Shown: positions 1,609-23,803 of the stretch, one piece after another
How positions within the stretch are numbered: the stretch's first letter is position 1
Layout: each line of letters starts with the position of its first letter
Source: a virus
Lineage: Duplodnaviria; Heunggongvirae; Uroviricota; Caudoviricetes
Direction: 5' to 3' (one strand)
Length of the DNA: 23,803 bases
Virus record (IMG/VR): IMGVR_UViG_2563366943_000008
Span: 1 to 23,803 of that record
Translations under genes and position numbers: made by a program
The notes under the pieces: model-generated
What the model was told of the DNA's origin: nothing
Seen by the model: the letters and a program-made list of their open reading frames with translations, nothing else
The model's database searches: none

Positions 1609-1609
1609 A

Positions 1610-10009: not shown

Positions 10010-10361
10010 CCCGCATGTATTCACCTGATATTGCGTTGTCAGCGCCGCCAGTATCGCGCATAACAGCGCACTGACCGGGTAAACCGTAGCGCACGACCGT
10101 TGCGTTAGTATCACCGCCGCGCCGTATCTGGCGCGATTCATACACTGTCACCCGCTCAAGCAGTCCACCAGCAACCATGCTTTCCAGTGTGCGCCGGGTT
10201 GATTCGAGCTGGTGACGCTTATCGAACGACACCATGCCATGAAGCAGGTAGGCCACACCCGACACATCGAACGGCGGCGCACCAATCTCACCAGTCACCC
10301 ATTCGAGGTTATCCGGTTCAAAGTAGCTAAGTATCTCTTTTTTGCGGCTGGTCATTCTCAT
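10002..10361 (-). CDS. hypothetical protein (119 aa)
   Basis: ORF convergent with and overlapping the 3' end of the 9467-10009 gene by 8 bp; AAGGA-like Shine-Dalgarno upstream of the ATG at 10361. Function unknown. Confidence 0.35.
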   Translation of the reverse strand: MRMTSRKKEILSYFEPDNLEWVTGEIGAPPFDVSGVAYLLHGMVSFDKRHQLESTRRTLESMVAGGLLERVTVYESRQIRRGGDTNATVVRYGLPGQCAVMRDTGGADNAISGEYMRVS

Positions 10362-10480
10362 GGCTGGCTGATTCCTTATTGTGGGATAGCACTATCATAC
10401 AATAAGTGGGTTAAAGGGAGAGCGTTACCGCCTGATATGCTGTATGAATAACAACCAAATTTCAGGGGCGGAAAAAGATA

Positions 10481-10501
10481 TGGGGGTACTTTTGGGGGTA
10501 T
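10481..10501. repeat. second copy of the TGGGGGTAC-N3-TGGGGGTAT motif pair
   Basis: TGGGGGTACTTTTGGGGGTAT at 10481-10501 versus TGGGGGTACTTATGGGGGTAT at 1558-1578: same orientation, one mismatch. Confidence 0.7.
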
Positions 10502-10562
10502 CTATAAAAAATGAACAATAAAAAAGGCAACAAAAACAAAGCTTATCGCCTATGTGTATTGT

Positions 10563-10582
10563 TCCTATTATCGCACAATCAA
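10563..10582. other. degenerate direct repeat of the tRNA-Thr 3' end (candidate attR core of module 1)
   Basis: TCCTATTATCG-CAC-AATCAA aligns with tRNA 3' end TCCTATTATCGGCACCATTCAA (1428-1449): 11/11 identical, then gapped similarity. Lies about 60 bp beyond the second TGGGGGTA pair. Confidence 0.45.
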
Positions 10583-11182
10583 GAAAATCAATAACTTAGC
10601 TTAACTTCTCTAAGAAATTGTATCTTCTGTTATCACTTACAAACGCCTATACGTTGTTATGGGCTTTGGTAGTGTAACACGTATGGGCGAGTAGTTCCCA
10701 GGCTCAACCTCGTAACAAGTTCCTTTGAAGCTGGAAGACGTGCCACCGTCTCTAAACCTTCTACCAAAACTCTTAGCAAGATGTTCCACACCTGGCGCGG
10801 TGTCCAATGATGCTACACGTCGTGAGACGTTGCAGAGGATAAACAGGCTAAATGATGGGAAGAGTTTTAAGTGCAATAGTGGATCAAAGCCCACCTCTTC
10901 AAAACCTAACTTGATCGGGAAAGAATCAAGCTCTAGCACGGTTTCGTCCACCGGAGTACAACGGGTGCCTGATAAGAGAAGAACTGCTAAGACTTCATAG
11001 CTTTTGTGAAAAAGCCCTTTTAGTGGATACGCCTACGGCGCTTATTTTTTGGGGTAGCCCATCAAAGGCGCTTTATGGCTCCTATTGTCTTGAAAATGTA
11101 TCTTTACTTGTATTGTGTTTTATGCGTAGTCTCCCTGTGTAGTATGTAACTTGTTAATTTTCATATGAATACAGAGGCACAC

Positions 11183-11341
11183 GATGAAAAACATTGCAGC
11201 TATCAAACGTAATAACCGCAAGATTCACGCTCGTAAGTTCCTGTCTACGCCAGAAGGAAAAGCCTGGCTAGAGCGTAAACAGAGAGAGAACGAAGAAAGA
11301 AAACTCCTTAATGAGTTGAAATGGCTTAGAGAGGATTTCTG
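11183..11341 (+). CDS. hypothetical small basic protein (52 aa)
   Basis: ATG at 11183 with GAGG 6-9 nt upstream; translation MKNIAAIKRNNRKIHARKFLSTPEGKAWLERKQRENEERKLLNELKWLREDF. Below the ORF-track size cutoff, so found by eye. Coding status uncertain. Confidence 0.25.
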
Positions 11342-12153
11342 AAAATCTCCAGAACGCAACAGGACGCATTCTAACGCTATTTTCATTGCTTGGTATAGGG
11401 ATGTATAGGTGATGTGTGTTTAATGCGTCTGTGCGCTTGTTTTGTGCCTTATTTTGCATTTTCATAATGCAGAAGAGAACACGGAAAACCTTAAAATTAA
11501 TTATTGGGGTATTTAAGGGTATTTTCAGGTGATTTAAGGGTATTAAACTTGATTTAATTGATTAAAATATAAACAGATAGTTGTGTATCTTATTGATTTA
11601 TAAGGTTATTTTTAAATAAAGGTAAATAAAAAATAAATAGCCATAAATAGCTATAAATACATCTAAATACCTATATCCCTTCCCTTATGGCTAGATTGCG
11701 AGAGGTGCTTAACGCGATTTTCAGCGCCCCCCGATCTGGAAAATCCAGAATCCCCAAATATCAGCAAGGAATTTTCTTGCGTAATCAACATCGTTTTTAC
11801 CTATTAAATCATTACACAGAAAGCCTTTCTGTAATGTCTCTCACTAAACTTTCACTAAACACGAGAATGATCGGTTTTATGTCGGATCAGATGCTAGAAA
11901 CAGCACCACGTCTCACAAGGACTGTAAGCGATGAAACCAGTGTTTATGCGGGTGCAGGTCAAAATATAGGCCAAAATCAATTTAACATAATAAACGTAAT
12001 ATGCACTAAGGAACACATAGAACGCCTTGAGTTGATGTATCAGGGGAAAAGTGATGGATTTTTTACGTAGGAGCACGAGAGGGCTTCTGTTGACTTTTGT
12101 ATGCTATGAAACATAATTAAAGGTTTTTTTGTTTTTATTGTGTGATGTAGTGG

Positions 12154-13127
12154 ATTACACAGGGGAATAGATTAAATGGTGTTCTGTTTATACAGGTTTA
12201 TTTGTTAGATCAACAATTTGGCATTTCTAAACAGATGTTTGAACGTTGCCAAATGTCTTGACAACACAAGAAAAGGGCTTGCTATGCCACGCATTACACG
12301 AAATAAGGCTGTAAAAACAAAATAAATTTTAAAATTTGCACAAACGAGAAAACTCGTTAAGAAACAAGCAGAACAATTTTTAGCCAACAATTTCTGATGG
12401 TGCTCTGTAGGCCGCACTACACAAGGATTTGCGAAAGTGATGTAAAAGTGAAGAAAGTAAGAATTGCACTTTTAAGCTACTTTTCATTGAATTTTTAGTA
12501 TGGAATTACACAGGAATAAGTTAGGGATATTCTATGATTTACACAGGGAATATAGGGGATTATGGCACACACATAGAAAGGCATTACACAGAGTGAGTGC
12601 TATGTGATGATTGGTAGTAACGGTAGGTCATAGTGAGCTAGGGGGTAGGTCACTGTGAACTACAATAAGACTATTAATAAAACTATATTAGATTATTAAT
12701 TAGATCATAATAATAATATTCTTTATATCTATATATATGATCTTTTGCCTTCCGGCGTTAGCTTCACTCTCTGGCAAGCAGCCTTACTCCGCTACCTTTC
12801 GGGCTTCGTGGCTGGCCCGTTCCGCTCACACCGAAAGCAAAGCGTTACTTTCTTCGTGTAACTTCGTTGGCGGTAACGCCCACGAAGAAATCTATTGCGC
12901 TGTGCGCAGTAAGAGTAATCACCTAACCAATCATACTGATTGCTTATGTGTTAACTCTCTCTAACTCTTAATTACCCTCCTACATTTAATAACTCTGTTA
13001 TTCTCTGTAGTTGTGTAATTACTCGAAGAGAGAGCGGCTAAAGCTCAATTACACTCTGCTTTCCTCGTGTAATTTCACTAAGCCTCAATACAATTTCACT
13101 TCCTACATTCTGTAGTCGTGTAATTGT
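12154..13127. repeat. iteron field flanking an AT-rich tract and GC-rich core (origin-like region)
   Basis: Direct copies of (A/T)TTACACAGG(G/A)AATA at 12154, 12505, 12538 and 12583, plus variants at 12293 and 12417. Inverted copies CGTGTAA(T/C) at 12855, 13012, 13066 and 13117. 17-bp repeat TCTGTAGT(T/C)GTGTAATT at 13004 and 13110. GGTAGGTCA repeats at about 12625 and 12649. Extremely AT-rich tract at about 12660-12745. Confidence 0.5.
12745..12915. ncRNA. candidate structured RNA or single-strand initiation element (strand undetermined)
   Basis: GC-rich patch inside AT-rich DNA. Hairpin CTTCGTTGGCG-GTAA-CGCCCACGAAG (12862-12887; 10 of 11 positions pair, GNRA-type tetraloop). Hairpin CGGGC-N10-GCCCG (12800-12819). 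Long-range complementarity CTTACTCCGC (12783-12792) with GCGCAGTAAG (12904-12913). The overlapping 75-aa ORF has a non-protein-like sequence. Confidence 0.25.
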
Positions 13128-13761
13128 TTTCGGTGGAAAAGCCAGAGGCGACACCGAAAGAGAATTCTGATCTTATTAATCTTATCTATCTTAGTTAATC
13201 TTCTTACTTATCTTACTTACTTTATCTACTTTATTATTAATAATAGCTTTATAAGCTCTCTGTGTAGCTCTCTGACGCAAGAAACAGCATTCAGGAAGGG
13301 AATCACCTTAGAAAAGGTGTTCTTTGCGTCATAATGTGTTTTATGAAGGATTCAGAGGTGTTTCATAACAGGAATGTATAGAGAATACTTTAGGTAATTA
13401 AAAATAAGGGGTCTAAATGCTTCTCTAACAGCATTAAGCAGGGTAGGGAATGGAAACGCATTGCCTACATATAATAAACTCACTACAGGGCTTTACAGGG
13501 CGTTTTATAAAGCGACTCTCTGTTTTATATCTACAATCACCTTTTCATATACCTAACAAATACAAAATAAGCCCCTTAAATAAGCCTCTGGCGAGCTAAA
13601 CAGACATTACATAAGAGAATGTATTGCTTTTATCAAAACTTCGTTAGAACGCGTTTTAGAGCGTTTTAGCGGATAATGAAGAATAGCACTACACAGAAGA
13701 GCACGAATTGCTAAGACAAATTATAACATGCTGAAAAAGATCGATTTTTTCGAAAAGGGTA

Positions 13762-13790
13762 TTGACAAATGTTTCTTTATATGTAATAAT
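13762..13790 (+). promoter_or_regulatory. sigma70-like promoter upstream of the rightward small-gene array
   Basis: TTGACA at 13762-13767, 16-17 bp spacer, TAATAA(T) at 13784-13790. The -35 is embedded in GGGTATTGACA, sharing the GGGTATT motif seen elsewhere in the element. Confidence 0.4.
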
Positions 13791-13903
13791 AGGTATTAGA
13801 GGGACAGAAAAACATTCTTCTCTAAATAATCAAAATCAATGCACTTTGAAGCCGTCAGGCTTGCAAGGTGTTTTATTTCTTTTAACTGAATAAGGAGTTT
13901 TTT

Positions 13904-14092
13904 ATGAAATGGTTTACACCGGAGCACGTCGTAAAGGCATTTAAAAAAGGTGAGCTTACACGCCACCAAATAGTAATGAATCGTAATATGGCAAGGAGTC
14001 GAGGTTATCCAGAGCGAGCAGCTTGCTTCAATGAAGCACTCAAGATTATTGATGAACTAAGAAAAAATGAAAAAGAATCTGAAACAGAGTAA
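13904..14092 (+). CDS. hypothetical small protein (62 aa)
   Basis: ATG preceded by TAAGGAG Shine-Dalgarno at optimal spacing; first gene downstream of the promoter. Confidence 0.5.
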   Translation: MKWFTPEHVVKAFKKGELTRHQIVMNRNMARSRGYPERAACFNEALKIIDELRKNEKESETE

Positions 14093-14111
14093 AGAAGAGA
14101 AGGAGAAAACT

Positions 14112-14282
14112 ATGAGCGAAGCTACAGAAAAGAAAAGACAACCACGCACTTGCTTTCATATTCCTGATGAAGTATTTCAGGTGTTGTTTAAAGAAGCCAG
14201 AAGTAAACGTATCACTGTTACAGATTACATTCTTGATATGTTGAAAAGAGAGGCTGAAACACTCTCAAATAAAAGCAAGTGA
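14112..14282 (+). CDS. putative ribbon-helix-helix (CopG/Arc-like) DNA-binding protein, 56 aa
   Basis: ATG at 14112 with GAAGGAG upstream. RTCFHIPDEVFQVLFKEARSKRITVTDYILDMLK fits strand-helix-helix. The ORF track starts earlier (14067) at an upstream in-frame ATG lacking a Shine-Dalgarno. Confidence 0.5.
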   Translation: MSEATEKKRQPRTCFHIPDEVFQVLFKEARSKRITVTDYILDMLKREAETLSNKSK

Positions 14283-14335
14283 TTTTTATCACCATAGTAG
14301 CGCCATAGAGCGTGATTACATCAAGGAGATTTTTA

Positions 14336-15028
14336 ATGATTAACCAACTAACTTTTACAAAACACTATGACACGTTTGATAATATATCAAAGATTTATTC
14401 TGATAAATTCCCTCAAGGAAAAGATTTAGATCTATTACATATTGTGCTTTATTTTCGATTCCTTAGTTATCAGGAAAACAACCTTAATTGTTATGAAAGT
14501 CACGAAACATTAGCTAAGATTTTTAAGTCTTCACCATCAACAATTAAACGTAAGATAAACGATCTTAAAGAGATGGGATTATTAGAAACATCCCCACATC
14601 CTGATCCGTATATTTCATCTTTGATTTACAATGCTCTCCCTCTCACAGATGCACATATTACTCCCCCAGGAGAATCATCACTCTCTGATCTTTCTGAGGC
14701 AGAAGAAGCACAGGAACAACCTAAAGGCCATAAACAGCCTTCTTTTGATGTTCTTGATGATGATTGGGATACGCCTTTACCCTGGGAGACGGAAGAAACA
14801 CCTGTTTCATCAAGTGAAAAGGTAGCTAATGATAATGAGGAGGATGTGTTAGAGAATTTTGCCTCTCTTATCATCCAGGAGAAACACAAAAGAACAGGAG
14901 GGGCATCATTTATAGAATTTGCAAATTCACTAGCTTGTAGATACGGGCTAAAACGACCAAATGGTATTGAGGCATATTTTTCTAAGCATTACCCAAATGT
15001 ATACGAAGACTTTGATATTCCCTTTTAA
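14336..15028 (+). CDS. putative winged-helix DNA-binding protein with acidic C-terminal tail (replication-initiator / replisome-organiser-like)
   Basis: ATG at 14336 with AAGGAG 9 nt upstream (ORF track starts at 14312). N-terminal segment ETLAKIFKSSPSTIKRKINDLKEMGLLE is a typical HTH. C-terminal third is strongly acidic (DDDWDTPLPWETEETP...EEDVLENF). Confidence 0.45.
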   Translation: MINQLTFTKHYDTFDNISKIYSDKFPQGKDLDLLHIVLYFRFLSYQENNLNCYESHETLAKIFKSSPSTIKRKINDLKEMGLLETSPHPDPYISSLIYNALPLTDAHITPPGESSLSDLSEAEEAQEQPKGHKQPSFDVLDDDWDTPLPWETEETPVSSSEKVANDNEEDVLENFASLIIQEKHKRTGGASFIEFANSLACRYGLKRPNGIEAYFSKHYPNVYEDFDIPF

Positions 15029-15044
15029 AAAGTAAGGAGGACTA

Positions 15045-15323
15045 TTGATACAGTATTTAATAAAAAGCAAAGTAGACAGAATTCAGTGTAACGACACAGG
15101 AAAACGCATCTACGAAACGCTTGCTTACCTCTATAAAGGAAAGCCAACACCGCTAAAATATAGCGATGTGTTACATCGAGCAGGTTGCTCTGAGTCAGGT
15201 TTAAAATTCTGGCTGAAACAGCTATCAAATTTCGGTGTTATTGAAATGAAAGAGCTGTCTTTCTCTACATTTAATCTCAAAAGACTAGATAAAGAAATAG
15301 AATTCATCTATTCCACTCTCTAA
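15045..15323 (+). CDS. small HTH-type DNA-binding protein (92 aa)
   Basis: TTG start with very strong TAAGGAGG Shine-Dalgarno 6 nt upstream. Contains a probable HTH (YSDVLHRAGCSESGLKFWLKQL). Confidence 0.45.
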   Translation: MIQYLIKSKVDRIQCNDTGKRIYETLAYLYKGKPTPLKYSDVLHRAGCSESGLKFWLKQLSNFGVIEMKELSFSTFNLKRLDKEIEFIYSTL

Positions 15324-15455
15324 AATCTCTCTATGTAATTAAAATATAAAAGGAAAACATTATTATGATAGTAGCTATGTATTGGTTATTGTTCTTTCTC
15401 ACGTTAGAAGCATATTTCGGGGTGTTTTCCTTTAAAAGAAAAGGAAAAGTAAATT

Positions 15456-15866
15456 ATGGCAAAAAGAAAAAACAACGTTGTTAAGAAAATCGGTGATTCA
15501 GCTTCTCTTCTAAGTAAACCTAAATCTATTCTAAAACGTAAAGACTTTAAAGAGCTAGTTACGCTCACCAAGCATAATAGCGCCCCTGGCGAATGGAAAA
15601 CAGAGATCATAGAACATTCTCCCTCTGTGCCTTGTGGAGATGAATATATCGCCTTACAAGAAATCTTATCTTCAACACCTGGCGTGTTCTGGAAACCTAA
15701 AAAAAGAAAAGAGTATATCGTTGATAGCTCTGATTTACGCAAATACCAGATTTTAGGATTTGAAGATTATAATCACTACGTTGGTTATCTCGCCACAAAT
15801 GGCCTAAATAATTTAGTTCCTGAATTCCAGATTTTAGATAATGCAGATCACTATGGAGACTTTTAA
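15456..15866 (+). CDS. hypothetical basic protein (136 aa)
   Basis: ATG with AAGGAAAAG upstream. Lys/Arg-rich N-terminus. Stop codon is 1 nt before the start of the next gene. Confidence 0.5.
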   Translation: MAKRKNNVVKKIGDSASLLSKPKSILKRKDFKELVTLTKHNSAPGEWKTEIIEHSPSVPCGDEYIALQEILSSTPGVFWKPKKRKEYIVDSSDLRKYQILGFEDYNHYVGYLATNGLNNLVPEFQILDNADHYGDF

Positions 15867-15867
15867 T

Positions 15868-16206
15868 ATGAACAAAAACACGTATGACACAATTTACTCA
15901 CTAATTAATTATTATGAGGATGATTACCTCCTGCCTTTAAACCGCGCTGAACTTGAAGCATACAAAGAAAACACGCCAGCGGCACTAAATGAGGCGTTTA
16001 AACACTGGGATTTAGCTGTGAATGCCTTTGAGCACCTCTCTAAGCGTGTAGAGATGCTCTGTAAGCGCGAAAACGCATACCTGACAGCCGATCAGGTATG
16101 GGAATTATCAAACTGGATAGAAGATATTGAATCTGATGTTCGCTATGTGGGAGATGGACTTGTTGAACTAGCGCAACGCTTAGGCGCTACTATCACAGAA
16201 GAATAA
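15868..16206 (+). CDS. hypothetical acidic protein (112 aa from ATG 15868; in-frame alternative starts at 15841 and 15853)
   Basis: GGAG 9 nt upstream of ATG 15868; translationally coupled to the preceding gene. Confidence 0.45.
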   Translation: MNKNTYDTIYSLINYYEDDYLLPLNRAELEAYKENTPAALNEAFKHWDLAVNAFEHLSKRVEMLCKRENAYLTADQVWELSNWIEDIESDVRYVGDGLVELAQRLGATITEE

Positions 16207-16235
16207 AAAAAGCAACAAAAAAGTTGTAAAATATC

Positions 16236-16264
16236 TTGACATTCCATCTATTGTATGTTAATAT
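16236..16264 (+). promoter_or_regulatory. near-consensus sigma70 promoter
   Basis: TTGACA (16236-16241), 17-bp spacer, TAATAT (16259-16264). Confidence 0.5.
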
Positions 16265-16270
16265 AATTAT

Positions 16271-16491
16271 ATAGGGGTGATTATTTTTCCTTTATTGGTT
16301 CGATATTAAAAATTCTTCCTGTCATTAAAGGGGAGTAAAATCTCCGCTCCCCGCTTCTTCTCCTCCTTAAGTAAATACTGTGCCATTATACCTCTTTGTT
16401 ATGCATACATCTTGGAGTATGCATAACATAGGGTAATTACATAGGTATGAGTTAATAAAAGGCGGCTTTAAATGCTGCCTTTTATTTTGCC
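16271..16491 (+). ncRNA. candidate small RNA or structured 5' leader (about 220 nt)
   Basis: Lies between the promoter at 16236-16264 and a hairpin plus T-tract at 16457-16488 (AAAAGGCGGC-TTTAAAT-GCTGCCTTTT-ATTTTG). No ORF longer than about 11 codons on this strand. Contains hairpin GGGGAG-N11-CTCCCC (16330-16352), pyrimidine tract CTTCTTCTCCTCCTTA (16355-16369), and inverted repeat TTATGCATA / TATGCATAA (16399-16426). Confidence 0.3.
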
Positions 16492-16550
16492 CGTTATACA
16501 ACTTAAAAGTTGTATTTCTTACTTTAAACAAGGTAACAAGGTTTATATAA

Positions 16551-16763
16551 ATGTTGCTCTTAAATGATAAAGAGCAAATCATCAAGTATAAAGATGAAAT
16601 GCTGAAAATTAATCCACAAATTACCGAAATGGTAGCTAAATACGCTGGGTGTTCTGTCGAGGAAGTAGAAAGATGTGTTGAAAAATATTTTTCTCCTTCT
16701 TCTCCGTCTACACCTTCCCTTAATGAATTAATCAAATTAAAAGCTAAGGAGATTACTAAATGA
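16551..16763 (+). CDS. hypothetical small protein (70 aa)
   Basis: ATG at 16551; stop overlaps the start of the next gene (ATGA). Weak Shine-Dalgarno. Confidence 0.4.
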   Translation: MLLLNDKEQIIKYKDEMLKINPQITEMVAKYAGCSVEEVERCVEKYFSPSSPSTPSLNELIKLKAKEITK

Positions 16764-17122
16764 TTATTGATTTAGACACTCTGTTTCCAGTTCGAAAGAC
16801 TTTCACGGATATTGTAAGTTATTGTACTGATCCGTTTGCCTCTGTAGAAAGCAAGGTTTTTGCTTCTCTTCCTGCTGATGTTGAGTGCGGCGACTTGATC
16901 ACCAGCACTGGCGCTAAATATGAATCAGGAGATGATATTTATGTTGTTATGAGTGAATTTGTAACGGCTGGAGAAAACAAGCCTGTAGATGTGCTACGTA
17001 GCAATGCTGGGCTTGTATGCATCAAAGCTGATGCGCTGAATGCTGTAAGTGAAGCAGCAAAAACAGCATTAATTAAAAAAGGCTTTCAGCTTGAAGGGTT
17101 CCATTCTGTTTTCACTTCTTAA
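16760..17122 (+). CDS. hypothetical protein, 120 aa (position and size compatible with a head-decoration or scaffold-like protein)
   Basis: AAGGAG Shine-Dalgarno 9 nt upstream. Immediately precedes the capsid-like gene, as gpD precedes gpE in lambda. No direct sequence support. Confidence 0.45.
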   Translation: MIIDLDTLFPVRKTFTDIVSYCTDPFASVESKVFASLPADVECGDLITSTGAKYESGDDIYVVMSEFVTAGENKPVDVLRSNAGLVCIKADALNAVSEAAKTALIKKGFQLEGFHSVFTS

Positions 17123-17140
17123 TAAAAGGAATAATAATAA

Positions 17141-18169
17141 ATGATTCTAGGTAATGATTACGTTGATTTAGCTCCTCTGTTCTCTGCGCATAGCACTAGA
17201 AATTATCTACTTTCTACTCTCGACTTCACTGATCCGGTGGGCGTTAGTTCTCATAAAGTAGCTGTTTCCCAGCTTGTCGAAAGCAACGAATCTCTCTTTA
17301 ACAAAGAGACAAGCCGTTTTAGTTCTGAACACAATGTTACTAAGCGAGAACAAGGTAAAGAATGGCTGATCGAAATCCCTTACTTCCTGCGTGAAGATGT
17401 GATCCGTCCTTCTGATGTTCAAGGCAAGCGTAAGCCTGGCACTGATTTTCAGGAAACACTCACTGATATTTATGCTGACTATGTTGCTAAACACCACGTA
17501 GCGTATCAGCGTACAAAAGAGAGCGTGCTGGCTGCATCTCTGTTTAGCGGTAAAACTTACACGCCTAAAACTGATGATGTTCTTATCGAGTGGAGCAAGC
17601 TGTTTAACGTATCAGCTATGAAAGCCACTGTGAACGCTTCCAGCACTGACACCACGAAGATTTTTAAAGAATTTGATCAGATTGCTACTGACATTATCGA
17701 AAAAGCACAGAGTCAGGCGGCGGCTGTAGAGCGAATTGTTGTTTTCTGTAAGCCGGAAGCCTTCTCTGCAATTCGATTCTCTGCTGGTATGGCAAACGCA
17801 TTCCAGTATGTAAGCCCACTGGAAGAGGGGAACGTTGTGTATCAGCGTCGTGACCTGCTGCCAGGGGTGACAGCGTTCACTATTCCAGGAACTAACATTG
17901 ATGTTGTTAAACTGGTAGATCCGCTACACCTGGCACATATGACCGCAGACGCTGTAGCTGTGCCTAAATTCTCTAAGGGTAGCGGAATTTATACCAACAT
18001 CTACGGGGCTGCTTCCAGCACCTTTGAACTGATTAATGCCGCTCCTGCTGAGGTGTATAGCTATAGCTATGAATCTTCTCGTGGTGATGCTGTTAACGTT
18101 GTTACAGAGAATAGCCAGATGGTGGTAAACCACGGTGTAGGCTTCTCCGTTCAAATCACTGTTAAATAA
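17141..18169 (+). CDS. putative major capsid protein (lambda gpE-like / HK97-fold candidate), 342 aa
   Basis: Length close to lambda gpE (341 aa). Local resemblance IVVFCKPEAFSAIRFS versus lambda IIVFDPKGWALFRS as recalled from memory. No signal peptide or enzymatic motif. Followed by a strong intrinsic terminator, consistent with a highly expressed structural gene. Confidence 0.4.
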   Translation: MILGNDYVDLAPLFSAHSTRNYLLSTLDFTDPVGVSSHKVAVSQLVESNESLFNKETSRFSSEHNVTKREQGKEWLIEIPYFLREDVIRPSDVQGKRKPGTDFQETLTDIYADYVAKHHVAYQRTKESVLAASLFSGKTYTPKTDDVLIEWSKLFNVSAMKATVNASSTDTTKIFKEFDQIATDIIEKAQSQAAAVERIVVFCKPEAFSAIRFSAGMANAFQYVSPLEEGNVVYQRRDLLPGVTAFTIPGTNIDVVKLVDPLHLAHMTADAVAVPKFSKGSGIYTNIYGAASSTFELINAAPAEVYSYSYESSRGDAVNVVTENSQMVVNHGVGFSVQITVK

Positions 18170-18187
18170 TATTTTAACGTGTAATAG

Positions 18188-18224
18188 AGGCGTGGCGTGA
18201 ATAACACGCTTCGCCTTTTTTTAT
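18188..18224 (+). terminator. rho-independent terminator
   Basis: AGGCGTGGCGTG-AATAA-CACGCTTCGCCT stem-loop (10 of 12 stem positions pair) followed by TTTTTTTATTTATTTTT. Confidence 0.75.
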
Positions 18225-18255
18225 TTATTTTTAAATTTTGAGAGGTGATTAAAAT

Positions 18256-18459
18256 ATGGAAGTGATTTTGAAATCAAAAAATGGTGTACACGTACATTTA
18301 GATGCTAATGATTCTAGAGGATTGTTAAATCTGAAATATCTCTGTTCTCTTTTAGATGTTCCCTATGAAGGAGTAAAAGCCCGTATGTTCAGATTAAACG
18401 AGAGTATTGATCAGGCTCTACACCATTTCTTAAGCAAAGAAGGTGGTAAAAATGATTAA
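18256..18459 (+). CDS. hypothetical small protein (67 aa)
   Basis: ATG with GAGAGGTGA Shine-Dalgarno-like sequence; lies between the terminator and the next gene. Confidence 0.4.
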   Translation: MEVILKSKNGVHVHLDANDSRGLLNLKYLCSLLDVPYEGVKARMFRLNESIDQALHHFLSKEGGKND

Positions 18460-19378
18460 TAAGGGGATTTTAAATGTTAGAAATTAACACTTCTAAAATT
18501 AAGAACACAGTAACATTTAGTGTAGATAAAGACAGCTTGAAAAAAGCGAAAGACTCTATTACAGGCTTAAAGGAATTTGCAGAGAATATCAAGCCAGCTA
18601 AGTTAAGGTTTGATAATGTCACTAAAGGCTATAAGAAAGCACAAAGTGAAGTAGACAAGATTGCTCAACAGAAAGCTAAAGCCGAAAAACAGAATCAAAG
18701 AGTACAAGCTGCCGCAGCAAGAGCACAGGCAAGGCAACAGCAACAAATAGCAGCACGTAAAGAGAAAGCAGAATTAAAACTCCTCGATGTGTCAAGCTCT
18801 ATCAGTGCAATGCACCGTCTCTCTGTAGCTGAACAATACAAAGCTATTGCACAGGCTAGAGAAATTGCCCTCCAATATGAAAGAGGCGCTATTAGTCTGG
18901 CACGTATGAATAGCCAGATGAAACGCTTACAACAGCAACAACGTAAGATTAATGGCAACAGAAAAGCACAATTAGCCCCCGTTAAGGGAGGATCAGGGAA
19001 TTCCGCCACTATGGGCGCTCTGTTATTTGGAGGCGCTACGGCTGCTGCTGGCGTGATGGCTGTTAGTAAAGCGTCGGAGTTTGTTAGTAGCAGTTTCGCT
19101 AACGCAGAGACCCAAGGGGAGCTAATCCAACGTGCAAGGCTTGGCGGTGTAGACGTTAACCAGATGTATAATATTACAGAATGGGCGTATAGAAACGGCG
19201 TTGACTCTATGATGGGTGATCAAGGGGCTAGGAAATACCTGGATCAGATGAAAGATGTTAGGGAACGTGCCGCAAAATCCTACAGTGAAGCTGAATTGGT
19301 GAAAGACAAGAAAACCGGAAAATCTGAATGGAAAGGCGGTGATAATGCTATTAATGAACTTCTAAACTGGATTTGCCC

Positions 19379-20284
19379 CTATATTTCCAGACATCTGTTA
19401 TCACTTAACCCATTACAAGCCCGCTGCCGCAGATATTCCCGTGGCGAGCGATAACCCAGCGCACTATGCGGATGCCATTCGTTATAATGCTCGAACGCCT
19501 CTGCAAGGTTCTTTGCTGCCGTTAACCCGTCTGGTTTGGGCATGATACTGATGTAGTCACGCTTTATCGTTTTCACGAAGCTCTCTGCTATTCCGTTACT
19601 CTCCGGACTCCGCACCGCCGTGTTCTTCGGTTCAAGTCCCAACATCCGGGCGAACTGGCGTGTTTCATTAGCCCGGTAGCATGAACCATTATCCGTCAGC
19701 CACTCCACTGGAGACGACGGAAGATCGTTGCCGAAGCGGCGTTCCACCGCTCCCAGCATGACGTCCTGTACTGTTTCACTGTTGAAGCCGCCGGTAGTGA
19801 CCGCCCAGTGCAGTGCCTCACGATCACTGCAGTCCAGCGCGAACGTGACACGCAGTCTCTCTCCGTTATCACAGCAGAACTCGAACCCGTCAGAGCACCA
19901 TCGCTGATTGCTTTCTTTCACGGCCACTCTGCCTGTATGTGCCCGTTTCGATGGCGGTACAGCAGGTTTTCGCTCAAGCAACAGCGCATTCTGGCGCATG
20001 ATCCGGTAAACACGTTTGGCATTGATCGCAGGCATACCATCAAGTTCTGCCTGTCTGCGAAGCAGCGCCCATACCCGACGATAACCATACGTGGGCAGCT
20101 CTCCGATAACATGGTGTATACGGAGAAGCACATCCGTATCATCAGTGTGACGACTGCGGCGGCCATCCATCCAGTCATCGGTTCGTCTGAGAATGACGTG
20201 CAACTGCGCACGCGACACCCGGAGACAACGGCTGACTAAGCTTACTCCCCATCCCCGGGCAATAAGGGCGCGTGCGCTATCCAC
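19379..20284 (-). CDS. insD: IS2 OrfB (InsD) transposase catalytic (DDE) domain; expressed as OrfAB by frameshift
   Basis: 301-aa ORF overlapping insC; sequence matches IS2 InsD. Confidence 0.88.
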
Positions 20285-20607
20285 TTTTTTGCCCGTCCAT
20301 ATTCAACGGCTTCTTTGAGGAGTTCATTTTCCATCGTTTTCTTGCCGAGCAGGCGCTGGAGTTCTTTAATCTGCTTCATGGCGGCAGCAAGTTCAGAGGC
20401 AGGAACAACCTGTTCTCCGGCGGCGACAGCAGTAAGACTTCCTTCCTGGTATTGCTTACGCCAGAGAAATAACTGGCTGGCTGCTACACCATGTTGCCGG
20501 GCAACGAGGGAGACCGTCATCCCCGGTTCAAAGCTCTGCTGAACAATTGCGATCTTTTCCTGTGTGGTACGCCGTCTGCGTTTCTCCGGTCCTAAGACAT
20601 CAATCAT
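20242..20607 (-). CDS. insC: IS2 OrfA (InsC) transposase N-terminal / regulatory protein
   Basis: 121-aa product [53 protein letters not shown] matches IS2 InsC (HTH). Confidence 0.9.
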
Positions 20608-21673
20608 CTGCTCTCCAATGACTAGTCTAAAAACTAGTATTAAGACTATCACTTAAATAAGTGATACTGGTTGTCTGGAGATTCAGGGGGCCAGTCTATA
20701 AACATCGGTGTTATTAACAAAAGCGACCTTAAAAAATTTGCTGATAATCCGGCTGGATTAATTTCTAAGGCTGTTAATGGAATGATGAAAAAAGGGTTTT
20801 CAGACTCCCAAATTGGACAACGTTTAGAAGACCTGGGCGATGATTTGATGCTTACGTCAAAATATTGGCAACGTTCCGTTAAAGATGTACAAGAAAGTAT
20901 TAATCAGCAAAAAGCCTCTGGAAAATGGCTAACAGAAACACAGCAAGACTCTATTGTTAAATTCAGAGAACTAAACAGACAGCTTTCACAGCTTTCTGAT
21001 GCAAGACAAGTAGCATTCGTAGACGGCTTTATGAAATCTCTCGATCCAAAAGTAACGGAAGAGTTTATGAAAAACCTTTCTAATCTCACTCCGTATTTTA
21101 CGAAGCTGGGAGAAGCTACAGGAAGTCTCTTTGAAGCTATTATGAAGATTGTAAACTGGTTTAATCGTAATGATGATAAGACAGATGCTATTCAGAAAAA
21201 TATGGGTGATGCACCGCCATTAAGCAATGAAGGGATGAAACAGAATCTTTCTAATCTCGTTCCTAATCAATATAAAGGCGCTGGCACTGCAACAACTACA
21301 CCTGATAATAGTCATTCTCTCTTTAACACAATTAAGGGATTGCTTTTCGATGATAATTCTTCTGTGTCAGATGTAAAAATGTCAGTCAATGAAGCACCGA
21401 TAACCAATCTCAAACAGGGTGCTTTAAATAATCTTGCAATGACAACTCCAGCTTATAATTTATCTCCTGTGTTTAATCTGAATCCTACATTTGAAGTGGT
21501 AACAGAAGTGCCGCTAACTATCGAATCAGACACCGGACGATTGAGCGATTATGTGGATTTTACAGCGAGAGCAAGTCGGGATAGCTTCTTGAAATCATTA
21601 ACATTAACCAGCTTATCAGGACAATCCAACGGCGGGTAATTCCCGCCATAACATTACAAGGAAAATTATTATT

Positions 21674-22387
21674 ATGGCGACCGCCGGGATTTTAACCATA
21701 CGTGCAGCAAATACTCCAGAACAACACGTTCAGGCTGTTTACAAAGCAGAACAAGATATAAATTCTACAAAAAACGAAAATAGCAAAGCTAATAAAACAA
21801 AAGGAGAGAACGGATTTGCTATTGTTACCAGTGGCTTGGCATCTTCTGGTAATGACGTTTATGAAAATTATATGGCACTGGCCTTTGATAGTGTTGACGA
21901 TGTGAACGTGAGACGTTCGGCAGATGTCACAAGCTACCCCGTAGAAAATGGTGCTACTGTGTCTGATCACGTTCAAATTAAAAACAATAAGTTCTCTCTT
22001 AAAGGGCGTATCACTGAAACACCGATTAAAAGCGATCCTGGCTTGTTAAAGAGTGCAGGGGTGAACGGGAACAGAAGATCATTAGCTATAGACTACTTGA
22101 ATCAGATTATGGACAGTAGACAGCCTTTTCTTCTTGTTACAGAAAATAAAACTTTTGAGAACGTTGTTTTAACAGGCATCGAATACACAGAAGAGGCAAG
22201 CGAATCCCTGGTATTTGATCTTAGCTTTGAACAAATAAGATTAGTTTCTTATGGTACTGTAAACACTGTAGCTATCAAAACACAGCCATCTAAGAACATC
22301 GGGGCGAATATGAAAAAACGTGTTAACACTGAAAAATCAAGTAGTGAAGGTGAAGACACTATTACTCCTGCCTTTAAACAGGAATAG
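21674..22387 (+). CDS. hypothetical protein (237 aa), predicted beta-rich
   Basis: ATG with AAGGA upstream; last gene of the rightward array. No recognisable motif. Confidence 0.45.
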   Translation: MATAGILTIRAANTPEQHVQAVYKAEQDINSTKNENSKANKTKGENGFAIVTSGLASSGNDVYENYMALAFDSVDDVNVRRSADVTSYPVENGATVSDHVQIKNNKFSLKGRITETPIKSDPGLLKSAGVNGNRRSLAIDYLNQIMDSRQPFLLVTENKTFENVVLTGIEYTEEASESLVFDLSFEQIRLVSYGTVNTVAIKTQPSKNIGANMKKRVNTEKSSSEGEDTITPAFKQE

Positions 22388-22428
22388 CCGTAAATGCCTC
22401 TAAAACGCTCTGTAACGATGTAATTATA

Positions 22429-22461
22429 AAAGAGGCTACCAATCTATGTTGAAGCCTCTTT
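22429..22461. terminator. bidirectional hairpin between convergent genes
   Basis: AAAGAGGCT-N15-AGCCTCTTT, a perfect 9-bp stem, located 8 nt beyond the integrase stop and about 40 nt beyond the 237-aa gene stop. Confidence 0.5.
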
Positions 22462-22468
22462 ATTGCGT

Positions 22469-23803
22469 CTATGGCGTTGTTTTGCGCATTAAATTTGATT
22501 TTTTATTGATTGATAAGCCTTTCTCTATTTCAGGGTAGCGTAGAAGCTCAATATAGTTTTTAAGCTCTACTGGAGAAGCTGCATTCTTGCTATATGTGCG
22601 GAATGTCTCTGTATTGCCGCGTGTATGGCCCAGGAGAAGGGCGATCCTGTCTTCTGGAATTTGATTTCGATCAAGAAGCTGTGCTACTCCGTGTCTCAGA
22701 GAATGAAACACCTTCCTTTCTGTTCCCTTTTCCCCTAAAGCCTTTCGTTTAGCTCTTGTAAATCTCTGCGTGTGCCACGTGGAACGTTTACCATCAGCAC
22801 GCTCTGTAATGCTGGCGTGATAGAACAAAAAGCCATTATGAGGCTTTTCACGCAGCGACAACACCAACGGAGTGATAAGGCTATGCACAGGCACAAGACG
22901 TGCCGCAGCTTTCGTTTTTCCCTGTGTGATTTCAAAACACAGCACACCTTCGATCTCTTTCACATCGTCTATTGTGAGACTTGCTATCTCATTGATCCGC
23001 ATACCTGTATAAGCACCGATAAGACACAAAGCCATCATTTCTTTGTTTTCTGCTGAATCACCGGAAAATACTTGCAACACCTGCAATAGCTCTTTGTTAG
23101 AAAATGCCTCGTAGCTCTCTCTACTTTGTGCCACATCAAGCCTATGCCCTCGCCAGGGGGAGAGCGCCCTTTCTGGCGCATCGTGGTAACGTGATGAAGC
23201 TAACTCCCATAGCTGGGCCATTGGGCTGATATAATTTGCAATTGATTGTTGTGAAAGGGTTTTTTGCATGTGTTCTATCCAGCCTGTAACAGTGGTGCGG
23301 CTTACATCTTGCAATGCAATATCAGGCTTTTTACGGTAGGAGAGAAACATCTCTACCGCTTTTCTTGCCTTAGCTAAAGTGGCTGGCTTCTTCTTCGTGC
23401 TGTTAATTGTCAGGTAGATTTCAAGAATTTTAAGCAATGACGGACACGAAGACGCTGTATCTTGCATTCTGGTAGCTGTTTTGGCGTATTTAGCCTTACT
23501 GCGTAACAGTTCCAGCGTGTTCTCTATTGTGCTGTTTACAGGGGCGACACTCTCCCGTAGACAATGGTATTCATCTGCAATCTGATCACGCTTTCTACGT
23601 GCAACACGAAGACTACTTGTGTGCAGACTTCTGACAAACGTCCTTTTTCCTTCAAAAAAGGGCTGCATATACACAGGCAACGTGATCCTCAAATAGTAGT
23701 TACCGTAAGAATCACAGATTATGTATTGATTGGGCTTGTATCTCATAAACTCCCCGGCTAAAGTGTCGGAGCGTTTGTAATGTGAAAATTGATTGTAACG
23801 CAT
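22469..23803 (-). CDS. tyrosine integrase / site-specific recombinase (second, distinct family), 444 aa
   Basis: Start ATG at 23801-23803 (window edge). C-terminal catalytic motifs GMRINE, HSLRHGVAQLL, LLGHT and a downstream Tyr typical of tyrosine recombinases. Clearly different sequence from the first integrase. Confidence 0.85.
   Translation of the reverse strand: MRYNQFSHYKRSDTLAGEFMRYKPNQYIICDSYGNYYLRITLPVYMQPFFEGKRTFVRSLHTSSLRVARRKRDQIADEYHCLRESVAPVNSTIENTLELLRSKAKYAKTATRMQDTASSCPSLLKILEIYLTINSTKKKPATLAKARKAVEMFLSYRKKPDIALQDVSRTTVTGWIEHMQKTLSQQSIANYISPMAQLWELASSRYHDAPERALSPWRGHRLDVAQSRESYEAFSNKELLQVLQVFSGDSAENKEMMALCLIGAYTGMRINEIASLTIDDVKEIEGVLCFEITQGKTKAAARLVPVHSLITPLVLSLREKPHNGFLFYHASITERADGKRSTWHTQRFTRAKRKALGEKGTERKVFHSLRHGVAQLLDRNQIPEDRIALLLGHTRGNTETFRTYSKNAASPVELKNYIELLRYPEIEKGLSINKKSNLMRKTTP

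Follow-up and report, generated by a model that had tools for sequence, protein, structure and literature searches.

A candidate phage satellite in the Escherichia coli thrW gene with its own capsid and tail-core genes and a copy of a phi92-type DNA-end junction

PLE is a chromosomal satellite of a virulent T=13 myovirus. It has its own integrase, a large serine recombinase, and its own replication initiator and origin, and it needs the terminase, portal and tail of its helper. The helper coat protein is reshaped by an external scaffold, TcaP; to our knowledge, PLE has no capsid gene of its own. P4, whose helper is P2, measures ~11–12 kb and occurs in E. coli and Klebsiella; it has a tyrosine integrase associated with a tRNA, a variable cargo hotspot and an exact copy of the helper packaging site (cos). 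Its genes include Sid, Psu, Delta and an alpha primase-helicase, and none for capsid or tail structural proteins. cfPICIs, common in Enterobacteriaceae, encode an HK97-fold capsid protein, and therefore their own heads, and borrow other virion parts; their 11 core components include portal, protease, head–tail adaptor and connector, TerS, TerL and HNH, and the model used to detect them treats tail genes as 'forbidden' (PMC10085698). PICMI elements of Vibrionaceae are small integrative satellites of virulent phages, described as having no capsid-related genes and as being packaged as concatemers in helper-sized capsids (PMC10803314).

The element analyzed here occupies the right-hand part of the window, by which we mean the whole 23,803-nucleotide stretch of IMG/VR record IMGVR_UViG_2563366943_000008. 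As judged from sequence, it resembles PLE in being chromosomal, in having its own integrase, initiator and putative origin, and in having a virulent T=13 myovirus as its putative helper; small capsids, interference with the helper and dependence on helper terminase, portal and tail would also be expected of it. No genes homologous to those of PLE were detected, however, and in contrast to PLE, which belongs to Vibrio, it resides in Enterobacterales and brings its own capsid, cement and tail-core proteins. With P4 it shares size, type of integrase, cargo slot, occurrence in E. coli and Klebsiella and an exact copy of a helper packaging site, here putatively a direct terminal repeat (DTR) junction, but it lacks Sid, Psu, Delta, the alpha primase-helicase and a cos site, and its proposed helper is virulent and packages through short DTRs. 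Like cfPICIs it encodes an HK97-fold capsid protein, would borrow other virion parts and is common in Enterobacteriaceae; unlike them it has tail genes and lacks portal, protease, connectors and both terminase subunits, and its helpers would be virulent ~148-kb myoviruses; unlike PICMI it has a full shell kit and tail-core genes. It is also related to the structural module of phi92 and other Stephanstirmvirinae (gp123, gp124, gp134 and gp135), with which it shares homologous capsid, tape measure and tube initiator proteins, an analogous cement protein, gene order, junction sequence and GC content. The phage genome is 148 kb and the element 12.4 kb, with an integrase and att sites and without the phage's portal, terminase, scaffold, neck, sheath, tube, baseplate wedge, fibre, replication and lysis genes.

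We consider it likely that the element belongs to an undescribed satellite family whose helpers are virulent ~148-kb T=13 Stephanstirmvirinae myoviruses. In this reading the helper of the present copy would be a phi92-like Justusliebigvirus and those of sister copies phAPEC8-like Phapecoctavirus. No description of such a family was found in the literature searched. A reading made from the sequence alone had already set the locus apart from complete prophages, P4-like satellites and classic PICIs as a candidate undescribed satellite-like or defense element, and the satellite proposal is strengthened by a named helper, a junction mimic and recurrence under purifying selection. Phages of the phi92 type are used in phage therapy.

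In E. coli the element is inserted in the thrW tRNA gene as a discrete integrative island, 12.43 kb when intact. Toward its two ends lie the following features:

10563–10578, no strand: degenerate att core TCCTATTATCGCACAA, attL-equivalent at the junction of module 1 and the element
22469–23803, minus strand: intact tyrosine integrase with DUF6538, SAM-like and catalytic domains (RefSeq start 23746)

Element DNA begins directly after the att core, so that the left boundary proposed earlier (~10583) is exact, and attR lies ~105 bp past the end of the window. In E. coli O26:H11 11368 a 12,430-bp copy (locus L002) stands alone beside thrW, flanked on both sides by exact 17-bp direct repeats of the thrW 3′ end (TCCTATTATCGGCACCA, L002 14980–14996 and 27410–27426); homology to this copy begins at window position 10563. 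The integrase had been recognized by the sequence-only reading, as had the AT-richness: the element is 38.5–38.8% GC (38.8% without IS2) vs. ~51% for the flanking chromosome, and the helper is 37.6%. The neighboring module 1 looks like a mosaic remnant.

The structural genes are arranged as follows:

16236–16264, plus: sigma-70-like promoter (TTGACA-17-TG-TAATAT; consensus match only) ahead of the structural operon
16551–16763, plus: 70-aa ORF overlapping the start of the cement gene
16760–17122, plus: 120-aa capsid cement/decoration protein, gpD-like beta-tulip fold (structure model)
17141–18169, plus: 342-aa major capsid protein, HK97 fold, lambda gpE family
18189–18222, plus: intrinsic terminator between capsid and tail genes, a GC-rich hairpin followed by U7
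18256–18459, plus: 67-aa ORF preceding the tape measure gene
18474–19367, plus: 5′ part of the tape measure protein gene, cut by IS2
19368–20698, minus: IS2 (1331 bp), with 5-bp target duplication TAAAC at 19363–19367 and 20699–20703
20699–21639, plus: 3′ part of the tape measure protein gene (609 aa when joined to the 5′ part)
21674–22387, plus: 237-aa Dit-like tail tube initiator, homologue of phi92 gp135

The order of these genes (70-aa ORF, cement, major capsid, terminator, 67-aa ORF, tape measure, tube initiator) parallels gp123-gp124 and gp133-gp134-gp135 of phi92, and for all three structural proteins the best match among solved structures is a phi92 protein (gp124, gp134 and gp135). 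The suspected capsid protein matches Pfam Phage_cap_E (PF03864) over its full length (E 2.5e-14), and its family profile finds gp124 at 5e-19 over residues 2–341, although identity to gp124 is 21%. Proteins of this capsid clade occur only in such elements and are 21–25% identical to any phage capsid protein, whereas those of the two helper genera are 90% identical to each other. For the 120-aa protein the structure model gives a decoration or cement fold of the gpD type, as had been suggested, and the strong terminator noted after the capsid gene was recovered as an intrinsic terminator (region z-score −4.9). The 70-aa ORF is kept in most lineages, with 45–49% identity in other genera and dN/dS of ~0.1.

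The capsid genes had been described as an isolated pair in an element devoid of tail genes, and in this respect the earlier description has to be revised. What had been taken for a coiled-coil protein of 609 aa is a tape measure protein, whose gene is split by IS2 in the window. Removal of IS2 restores the 609-aa frame, and the intact O26 protein matches phrog_16051 (1.4e-54) and phi92 gp134 (1e-38), with 27–35% identity to Stephanstirmvirinae tape measure proteins. The IS2 insertion is a secondary event, foreign to the element, and the present copy may be impaired by it; other copies carry IS600, IS5 or IS3. The 237-aa protein is a Dit-like tube initiator (PF21821, 3e-29; solved-structure match to phi92 gp135, 21vq_N, 2e-78), 58–61% identical to Justusliebigvirus and Phapecoctavirus proteins (61% to gp135). 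In the phi92 baseplate gp135 is the hexameric tube initiator (PMC13450770). This gene is present in many lineages and missing from several. The 67-aa ORF may, by position only, encode a tail assembly chaperone: it stands where gp133 precedes gp134 in phi92, and no sequence similarity to gp133 was found.

Between the left end and the regulatory genes lies a largely non-coding region:

11184–11342, plus: conserved Lys/Arg-rich 52-aa ORF (RefSeq-annotated)
11696–11763, minus: putative pac-like site mimicking the DTR/unique DNA junction of the helper, for putative terminase recognition and cleavage
11764–12147, no strand: variable cargo slot, non-coding in the present copy
12148–13250, no strand: iteron-rich putative replication origin

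Most E. coli copies have the 52-aa ORF at 94–100% identity and three other loci at 78%; profile scans gave no family match for it. Positions 11343–13903 are repeat-rich and contain no credible ORF, in agreement with the earlier impression of an iteron-rich region; a 127-aa ORF at 11687–12070 is probably spurious. With one mismatch allowed, ATTACACAG occurs 16 times in the window vs. 5.4 expected (0 of 100 shuffles reached 16), and 8 of these sites fall within 11811–13696. Direct copies of ATTACAC(AG) occupy 12154–12591 and inverted copies 12853–13125, with an AT-rich core (~12660–12740) between them, and the region 12148–13250 is 88–95% conserved among E. coli copies, features consistent with an origin.

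At the DNA level, a link to the helper comes from positions 11696–11735, which are the reverse complement of phi92 324–363 at 40 of 40 positions (database-level E 2e-10). The phi92 DTR is 343 bp, and its annotated end (343|344), which corresponds to window 11710|11709, is inside the conserved block. A second conserved block, CCCCAAATATCA, lies at 11752–11763, and homology among sister copies stops exactly past it. Only the first block and a second one, CCCAAATATCA, are common to the element and distant Stephanstirmvirinae. The junction block is kept in phi92, VEcB, Klebsiella phage phi1_175008/KP2025 and Citrobacter phage Tr1, while the flanks have diverged. For a related phage, BME3, a 342-bp DTR was found independently by PhageTerm (PMC12210895).

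The phi92-type block is missing from the slot in four copies (L022, L033–L035). In the two of these whose slot was searched, L022 and L034, we found an 81–85-bp match to Phapecoctavirus that spans the boundary of the 309-bp terminal repeat of phage KKP 3954 and includes a genus-specific spacer (25/25); L026 is a recombinant of the phi92-type and Phapecoctavirus-type alleles. In two phage genera a homologous block lies within 9 bp of the physical end of the terminal repeat. One Klebsiella copy has a weak version of the block; in lineages outside E. coli, no phage match to the non-coding DNA reached significance at the database level. The cargo slot of L018–L020, L024 and L034 holds a resolvase gene (179–185 aa, PF00239). 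A search of the element for the helper's other DTR boundary yielded no copy, so one of two boundaries is mimicked; against the satellite reading, a single-boundary mimic gives no account of unit-length DNA with its own repeat.

Downstream of the putative origin lies a regulatory and replication operon:

13762–13790, plus: sigma-70-like promoter (TTGACA-17-TG-AATAAT, 11/12; consensus match only) ahead of the early operon
13904–14092, plus: 62-aa ORF, putative regulator
14112–14282, plus: 56-aa ORF, putative regulator, ribbon-helix-helix-like by eye
14336–15028, plus: 230-aa winged-helix replication-initiator-like protein (Pfam HTH_36, 1.1e-5)

Small ribbon-helix-helix and winged-helix proteins had been proposed here; both are plausible by sequence, and profile matches were obtained only for the 230-aa protein, which also hits PHROG replication initiation families (best 9.7e-10). 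The 62-aa and 56-aa ORFs, 38–65% identical across genera, gave no match in profile searches; dN/dS for the 62-aa ORF is 0.12–0.25. The 230-aa Rep is an exchangeable allele, being 43–64% identical in some copies that are otherwise near-identical.

The element's own capsid and tail-core genes, together with its copy of a helper DNA-end junction, suggest that it probably hijacks phi92-type phages to spread, with mobilization by the helper. On helper infection it would excise and then replicate from its own origin. Its capsid and cement proteins would build a shell for ~12 kb, roughly T=3–4 by volume scaling from phi92, with the helper supplying portal, scaffold or protease, terminase, neck, tube, sheath and baseplate. 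Helper terminase would recognize and cut the mimicked junction and package satellite DNA. The role of the tail genes is conjecture: the satellite tape measure protein and tube initiator might replace the helper tail core in these particles or poison helper tails. Interference with the helper would be an expected by-product. With sigma-70-like promoters ahead of both operons, expression may not depend on the helper, and no small-terminase-like or other redirecting factor was recognized in the element.

The locus might instead be a defense island that is not transduced, in which diverged capsid, tape measure and tube-initiator decoys poison assembly and the junction copy titrates or misdirects terminase, protecting the population against phi92-like and phAPEC8-like phages. 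The structural homologues correspond to just those proteins from which head and tail assembly starts, and interference with tail assembly is a known defense theme in mobile elements, as in the Tai systems (PMC11364771). The promoters are host-type in appearance, and our searches found no excised or packaged form: attP junction searches gave nothing usable, the family was not found in a phage-genome collection, and IMG/VR matches were mostly provirus calls in isolate genomes. The tube initiator has been repeatedly re-acquired from phages, as expected if a match to the target is needed. A decoy, however, would need neither a complete, co-evolving capsid and cement kit held under long, strong purifying selection until identity to the phage protein is 21%, nor its own initiator and iterons for amplification. 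PADLOC matched no known defense family, and small size together with an integrase, a replication module and a mimic of a packaging site is what marks known satellites. Capsid-derived interference thus fits the data less well than the satellite reading, of which it is largely a subset, since known satellites also interfere with their helpers; as a separate explanation we think it unlikely.

Alternatively, the element could be a satellite whose junction block acts as a regulatory sensor and sets off induction, either by binding an early protein of the helper or as a promoter element, with packaging by another route such as headful packaging of concatemers into helper-sized heads. The block could be regulatory because in the phages the first early gene lies ~340 bp downstream of it; just one of the repeat boundaries is copied, and further partial matches to the core motif, at 11372 and 11514 in the element, resemble a binding-site array. 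Its placement within 9 bp of a physical end in two genera argues for a packaging site, and the element's own capsid and cement make packaging in helper-sized heads unlikely. This alternative appears quite improbable.

The distribution of the element bears on whether it is decaying. Of 5426 complete E. coli genomes, 396 carry it, invariably on the chromosome, with as many as three copies in one genome and with more than one site in use. That the genes recur as a unit was borne out by the same compact order in ~35 loci from at least 10 enterobacterial genera (E. coli, Klebsiella, Citrobacter, Enterobacter, Cronobacter, Kluyvera, Buttiauxella, Scandinavium, Serratia and Sodalis), and within E. 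coli it spans two deep lineages. Values of dN/dS were 0.04–0.25 in the measured element genes (capsid protein, 0.11) and 0.30–0.77 for the exchangeable Rep allele; to judge from these ratios, the gene set is under purifying selection and not in decay. As stated previously, the element has no recognizable terminase, portal, protease, tail tube, primase-helicase or relaxase, and none of these, nor a sheath, was found among annotated ORFs in Pfam, PHROGs and NCBIfam scans. The concern that terminase, portal and tail genes might lie just outside the window is answered by the ~35 related loci examined, none of which retains genes for portal, terminase, sheath or tube. Descent from a temperate Stephanstirmvirinae relative or other myovirus prophage, now decaying and with a few structural genes left by chance, would explain phage-derived capsid and tail genes adjoining an integrase at a tRNA gene, the insertion sequences and the adjacent remnant-like module 1, but is the least probable explanation given the recurrent 12-kb gene set, its low dN/dS, exact att repeats, the uniform lack of those four genes, the element-only capsid clade and the virulence of Stephanstirmvirinae, of which we know no temperate member.

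Three further conserved ORFs follow the Rep gene:

15045–15323, plus: 92-aa conserved ORF
15456–15866, plus: 136-aa conserved ORF
15868–16206, plus: 112-aa conserved ORF

Their dN/dS values are 0.06–0.22. Members of the 136-aa family are very frequent in Klebsiella and E. coli. AlphaFold gives a poor model of the 136-aa protein (pLDDT 60.6), and over its C-terminal half there is a weak resemblance to an 82-aa ORF of phage VEcB. Exchange with helpers is indicated by the tube initiators of L037 and L039, which are 76–77% identical to phi92 gp135 vs. 50–55% to the copies of other satellites, identities that point to gene flow with the helper.

The window comes from the E. coli chromosome at proA-thrW, with the tRNA-Thr(CGU) gene at 1369-1444; a human blood isolate matches it at 100%, and the RefSeq annotation was used. 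Two tandem islands lie downstream of thrW: module 1 (about 1445-10562), whose integrase adjoins the tRNA gene, and the element considered here, which starts at 10563 and extends past the end of the window. E. coli O26:H11 11368 has the element alone, directly 3′ of thrW: there it measures 12,430 bp and is bounded by two exact 17-bp copies of the tRNA 3′ end in direct orientation (TCCTATTATCGGCACCA). The left att repeat is degenerate in the window (10563-10578), and the start at 10583 proposed in the sequence-only reading is therefore all but exact; the right repeat falls outside the window, about 105 bp beyond its end. The AT-richness described in that reading holds as well, as GC content without IS2 is 38.8% compared to 51% in the flanking chromosome. 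At 38.5% GC, against 37.6% in phage phi92, the element resembles phage and not host.

The 342-aa protein, which had been described as capsid-like, is a full-length member of the Pfam family Phage_cap_E (PF03864), with the whole domain matched over residues 19-341 at 53.5 bits (cut-off 22.9). Its family profile matches phi92 gp124 at 5e-19, and gp124 is a T=13 capsid protein with the canonical HK97 fold (PMC13450770). Sequence relationships to phage capsids are distant: a tblastn search of about 50,000 phage genomes yielded matches of about 24% only, and direct comparison with gp124 gave an end-to-end alignment at 21% identity. The terminator predicted to follow the capsid gene was found 3′ of it as a hairpin with U7. 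The 120-aa protein is a candidate gpD-like beta-tulip cement (decoration) protein, a fold represented in phi92 by the gp123 cement trimer (PMC13450770). Aligned directly with phi92 gp123 and gp133, the 120-aa and 67-aa proteins showed no sequence similarity to them.

On two points the sequence-only reading needs correction or completion. What it called a 609-aa coiled-coil protein is in fact the element's tape measure protein (phrog_16051, 1.4e-54), with about 27-35% identity to phi92/VEcB-type homologues (about 35% by tblastn against about 50,000 phage genomes) and a match to phi92 gp134, a trimeric tape measure protein (PMC13450770), at 1e-38. The 237-aa protein belongs to the tail tube initiators (Dit_like PF21821, E 3.4e-29, 101.9 bits against a cut-off of 24.2); among solved structures it matches 21vq_N at 2e-78, which is phi92 gp135, a hexameric tube initiator located centrally in the baseplate (PMC13450770), and also the PhiTE and Pam3 tube initiators. 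It is 58-61% identical to gp135 and its Justusliebigvirus and Phapecoctavirus homologues in the same tblastn collection. With both proteins identified, the element carries tail genes, which it had been said to lack. The phi92 virion is thus the best solved-structure match for all three structural proteins, and the element's gene order (cement and capsid, then a small ORF, tape measure and tube initiator) mirrors phi92 gp123-124 and gp133-134-135.

In this copy the tape measure gene is split by a 1331-bp IS2 (19368-20698) flanked by a 5-bp target duplication, TAAAC, and removal of IS2 restores the 609-aa frame. This insertion, like the tail genes, had escaped the sequence-only reading, whose description is otherwise largely right. 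Because of this interruption the copy is probably defective in tape measure function, and it may be crippled by the insertion. IS600, IS5 or IS3-family insertions occur in the same element in other genomes. The first 87 bp of the tape measure gene (18475-18561) share 86% DNA identity with the tape measure gene of the helper-type phage VEcB, a likeness that suggests either recent exchange or a constrained 5′ segment.

The remaining virion functions went undetected, as in the sequence-only reading. Pfam, PHROGs and NCBIfam scans detected no terminase, portal, protease, sheath, tube, primase-helicase or relaxase, and the same scans found no lysis genes; nor was a TerS-like factor found in the element. 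The integrase, also recognized from sequence alone, is a tyrosine recombinase (PF00589). The 230-aa protein contains a wHTH and resembles replication-initiator families in PHROGs. The structural operon has promoter-like sites of host type and an internal terminator. Five small proteins are conserved, and comparison of the small ORFs with PADLOC and NCBIfam gave nothing meaningful. One conserved protein of the element, of 136 aa (15456-15866), resembles in its C-terminal half an 82-aa ORF of VEcB (125117-125374; 33% over 55 aa, motif GFE..DH..G(F/Y)L..NGL.N, genome-wide E 0.009) and may be a captured phage regulator or partner. Its AlphaFold model was poor (pLDDT 60.6, pTM 0.33), too weak to warrant a fold search. 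Promoter-like k-mers shared between the element's intergenic DNA and the VEcB genome were generic AT-rich or ribosome-binding-site words only.

The 2.5-kb segment at 11343-13903 is repeat-rich and contains no credible ORF, in agreement with its first description as an iteron-rich region. Around an AT-rich core, iterons of the ATTACACAG type occur as direct copies at 12154-12591 and as inverted copies at 12853-13125; the whole window contains 16 matches against 5.4 expected, a number reached by no shuffle. A 127-aa ORF at 11687-12070 was rejected as a gene, as it starts inside the junction block described below, has its 3′ part in a variable slot and has no family match. Rfam returned just two sub-threshold chance matches.

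When 10583-14000 was compared with the phage collection in a sensitive DNA search, all matches were of one kind. Window positions 11690-11735 match 61 Stephanstirmvirinae genomes (E 2e-10), in phi92 at a segment annotated as the left direct terminal repeat (DTR), and 11696-11735 is identical at 40/40 positions to the reverse complement of phi92 324-363. The phi92 repeat spans 1-343, checked to be identical at both genome ends, which places its end (343|344) at window 11710|11709, within the block TTGCGAGAGGTGCT^TAACGCGATTTTCAG. For the related phage BME3, a 342-bp DTR was determined by PhageTerm (PMC12210895). When phi92, two Klebsiella phages, Citrobacter phage Tr1 and the element were aligned, only this junction block and a second block, CCCAAATATCA (11752-11763), were conserved, and the spacer and flanks diverged. 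Only one repeat boundary is copied: the helper's other boundary (phi92 position 1; motif CTATTTGTTGAG) gave nothing above chance in the element.

The junction exists in two alleles. Among about 35 related loci examined, most E. coli copies carry the phi92-type block at 27-29 of 29 positions, and some nearly identical copies lack it. The replaced segment of loci L022 and L034 aligns instead over 81-85 bp, at 81%, with at least 65 Phapecoctavirus genomes; in phage KKP 3954 the match spans the boundary of a 309-bp repeat present at both record ends, covering 37 bp of unique and 48 bp of repeat DNA. In a joint alignment, a universal core, TG(C/T)TTAACGCGA ... (C/T)CAAATATCA, is common to all, and a spacer of roughly 35 bp is genus-specific (allele A being the phi92 type), with the allele B spacer identical to KKP 3954 at 25/25 positions. 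The annotated repeat ends of phi92 and KKP 3954 lie within 9 bp of each other in this alignment. Locus L026 (4079-4210) contains a recombinant cassette whose left half is Phapecoctavirus-type and right half phi92-type. A swappable, helper-genus-specific copy of the junction is what a packaging-signal mimic would look like, and we infer that terminase cuts at the mimicked junction. In the Klebsiella copy the junction block is seen only in a weak, local form, and non-coding DNA of the Klebsiella, Serratia and L016 lineages gave no match to the phage collection.

The core motif TAACGCGATTTTCA occurs three times within 350 bp, at 11372-11385, 11514-11527 and 11710-11723 (1, 3 and 0 mismatches), over a background of about 0.16 per kb; the phage has a single copy. 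The outer two copies are spaced by 338 bp, nearly the length of the helper's 343-bp repeat, and the motifs might mark a repeat specific to the satellite or a binding-site array.

Homology among element copies breaks exactly 3′ of the second block, where a variable slot begins, and the region beside the junction cassette is a cargo hotspot. Its features and those of the left ends of related loci are as follows.

Variable slot and accessory genes, with coordinates in the window or in the named related locus
11764-12147: variable slot, empty in the window; holds a resolvase gene in many copies
L018 4517-5056, L019 4685-5224, L034 4015-4572: serine resolvase of 179-185 aa, beside the junction cassette
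L010 2968-3585, L012 3138-3689, L016 264-845: short Phage_integrase-like gene of 183-205 aa, at the left end in non-E. coli lineages
L010 4394-5083: Dam methylase in the Klebsiella copy

No remnant of the short integrase-like gene was found in the window. Loci L021 and L032 encode a 183-aa cysteine-rich, secreted-looking protein.

Whether the gene set recurs as a unit was a question raised in the sequence-only reading, and it does: the same order was found in about 35 loci across Enterobacterales genera. The capsid family comprises 53 clusters (37-97% identity), all from Enterobacterales and almost all on chromosomal contigs; the contexts examined include Klebsiella, Serratia, Kluyvera, Buttiauxella, Scandinavium, Citrobacter and several metagenomic and IMG/VR loci. 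The shared order is small ORFs, initiator, small ORFs, a protein of about 70 aa, one of about 120 aa and the capsid, followed by a protein of about 65 aa, a tape measure of about 615 aa, with or without the tube initiator, and then the integrase. A portal or terminase was present in none of the related loci examined. Cement-plus-capsid DNA was detected in 396 of 5426 complete E. coli genomes (about 7%), at 445 places, none on a plasmid, with up to three per genome. Comparison of E. coli copies gave a dN/dS of 0.11 for the capsid gene, 0.09 for the tape measure gene and 0.05 for the tube-initiator gene, with ranges of 0.04-0.20 for the cement gene and 0.05-0.25 for those small ORFs that were measured. 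Capsids are 58-72% identical among satellites and 21-25% identical to phage capsids, and those of the two helper genera share 90%. At 76-77% identity, the tube initiators of L037 (11075-11749) and L039 (13258-13932) stand closer to phi92 gp135 than to the copies of other satellites, that of the window included (50-55%), so this gene seems to have been captured repeatedly from helpers. No tube initiator was found in the Klebsiella locus L010, in L016, in the Serratia locus L012, or in L045 and L048. Locus L047 (JAEWTL010000083.1), a 9.4-kb contig labelled “MAG: Bacillota bacterium”, holds an E. coli-type copy (72% for the capsid, 28/29 for the junction block); a binning error is a much likelier source than a Firmicutes host.

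The first suggestion of a satellite-like element gains support from the helper link through proteins and junction, from recurrence and from purifying dN/dS. The element is small and resident (12.43 kb between att repeats, with an integrase) and has no full virion gene set. Its link to a specific helper is provided by the 40/40 junction, the Phapecoctavirus allele in sister copies and phi92 as best match for three proteins. We consider it likely that this is a satellite with these phages as its helpers, and rate it a new family among phage satellites. No published satellite of phi92-like, phAPEC8-like or rV5-like phages was found in the literature searched, with subscription-only papers outside its scope. 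In searches for the excised-circle (attP) junction, the one viral-contig match was a tandem array with a different element, and a metagenome scan gave none.

In the mechanism we propose, helper infection would trigger excision and replication of the element. Satellite capsid and cement would form a small shell on the helper portal and scaffold, and the helper terminase would act at the copied boundary. The satellite tape measure and tube initiator would form a tail core inside the helper baseplate, tube and sheath, or would spoil helper tails. By our own estimate (T^1.5 volume scaling from 148.6 kb at T=13, and no measurement), the capacity would be about 16 kb at T=3 and about 25 kb at T=4, and a 12.4-kb genome should therefore fit a T=3-4 head. 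The tape measure has 609 aa compared to 659 aa in phi92; we speculate that the tail would be shorter by about two of phi92's 24 tube rings.

Known systems were compared with the element in turn. PLEs are marked by a large serine recombinase, a RepA_N initiator, TcaP/NixI/LidI, a Vibrio host and the helper ICP1. PLE/ICP1, with PLE a satellite of a virulent T=13 myovirus, is functionally the closest system. There is no homology, and PLE reshapes the helper coat protein, whereas the element brings its own capsid. Membership was rejected on the tyrosine integrase (PF00589), the absence of detected homologues and the Enterobacterales hosts. The cfPICI model of SatelliteFinder requires portal, prohead protease, head-tail adaptor and connector, TerS, TerL and HNH, and forbids tail genes (PMC10085698). 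The element shares with cfPICIs its own full-length PF03864 capsid gene, but Pfam, PHROGs and NCBIfam detected no portal, protease, adaptor/connector, TerS, TerL or HNH, and two tail genes are present; it therefore falls outside the definition. Gram-negative PICIs carry an integrase, an AlpA-type regulator, a primase-replicase, a TerS or redirecting protein and a capsid-morphogenesis gene, and no tail genes (PMC10085698). Only the integrase and a wHTH initiator-like protein correspond here; AlpA, primase and TerS gave no match, and tail genes are present. P4-like satellites are recognized by Sid/Psu/Delta, the alpha primase-helicase (D5/Pox_D5) and a P2-type cos site. The element has no Pfam or PHROG match to Sid/Psu/Delta or the primase-helicase, and its only phage-like non-coding match is the Stephanstirmvirinae junction. 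A complete or recently decayed prophage would be expected to have morphogenesis, lysis and replication modules, whole or patchy, together with relaxed selection and gene losses that differ by lineage; this is contradicted by a compact gene set constant in about 35 loci and by dN/dS of 0.04-0.25 in the genes measured (the exchangeable allele of the 230-aa Rep aside). The earlier judgement that this is not a prophage, a P4-like satellite or a typical PICI thus stands, with P4 and PICI core genes undetected and the gene set constant.

Most known satellites of strictly virulent phages come from Vibrio (PLE, PICMI). We are evenly divided on the fullest form of the satellite reading: that this is the first known satellite family with its own capsid shell (capsid and cement) and its own tail core (tape measure and tube initiator), all else being stolen from a virulent ~148-kb myovirus, hence chimeric miniature-head virions; that helper specificity is set by a swappable copy of the helper-genus terminal-repeat junction; and that it is the first satellite system of strictly lytic E. 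coli/Klebsiella phages, bearing directly on the outcome of phi92-like/phAPEC8-like phage therapy. If true, E. coli, Klebsiella, Enterobacter and Citrobacter would share an abundant family that offers a tractable enterobacterial model, own shell and own tail core would widen the hijacking repertoire, and packaging would proceed via a short DTR-junction mimic and not via cos or pac. The conserved junction block is a testable candidate for the Stephanstirmvirinae terminase recognition site. Phi92-like and phAPEC8-like phages are frequent in therapeutic and biocontrol collections, and a resident satellite that interferes with them or is transduced by them would affect both efficacy and safety. Published PICI and cfPICI detection models would reject the element, since both forbid tail genes and the cfPICI model also demands portal and terminase (PMC10085698); families of this type may thus escape notice systematically.

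The locus itself is a hotspot of tandem arrays at thrW. In L018, the region downstream of the satellite attR (15993-20372) encodes another integrase and, after it, a reverse transcriptase (RVT_1) and a P4-type primase (Pox_D5). Module 1, especially 4305-6410, is an integrase island with IS1, a PerC-family regulator and a pRiA4b ORF-3 family gene, and also encodes a 701-aa “P22-gp16 family DNA ejection protein”. Over its first ~180 bp, the stretch 4305-6410 shares 96% identity with P22/Sf6-like podoviruses at their ejection-protein gene junction, and the remainder is about 68% identical to phage N7/HZ41. Two readings are open for module 1: a mosaic remnant of a prophage, or a further element that has kept just one virion protein.
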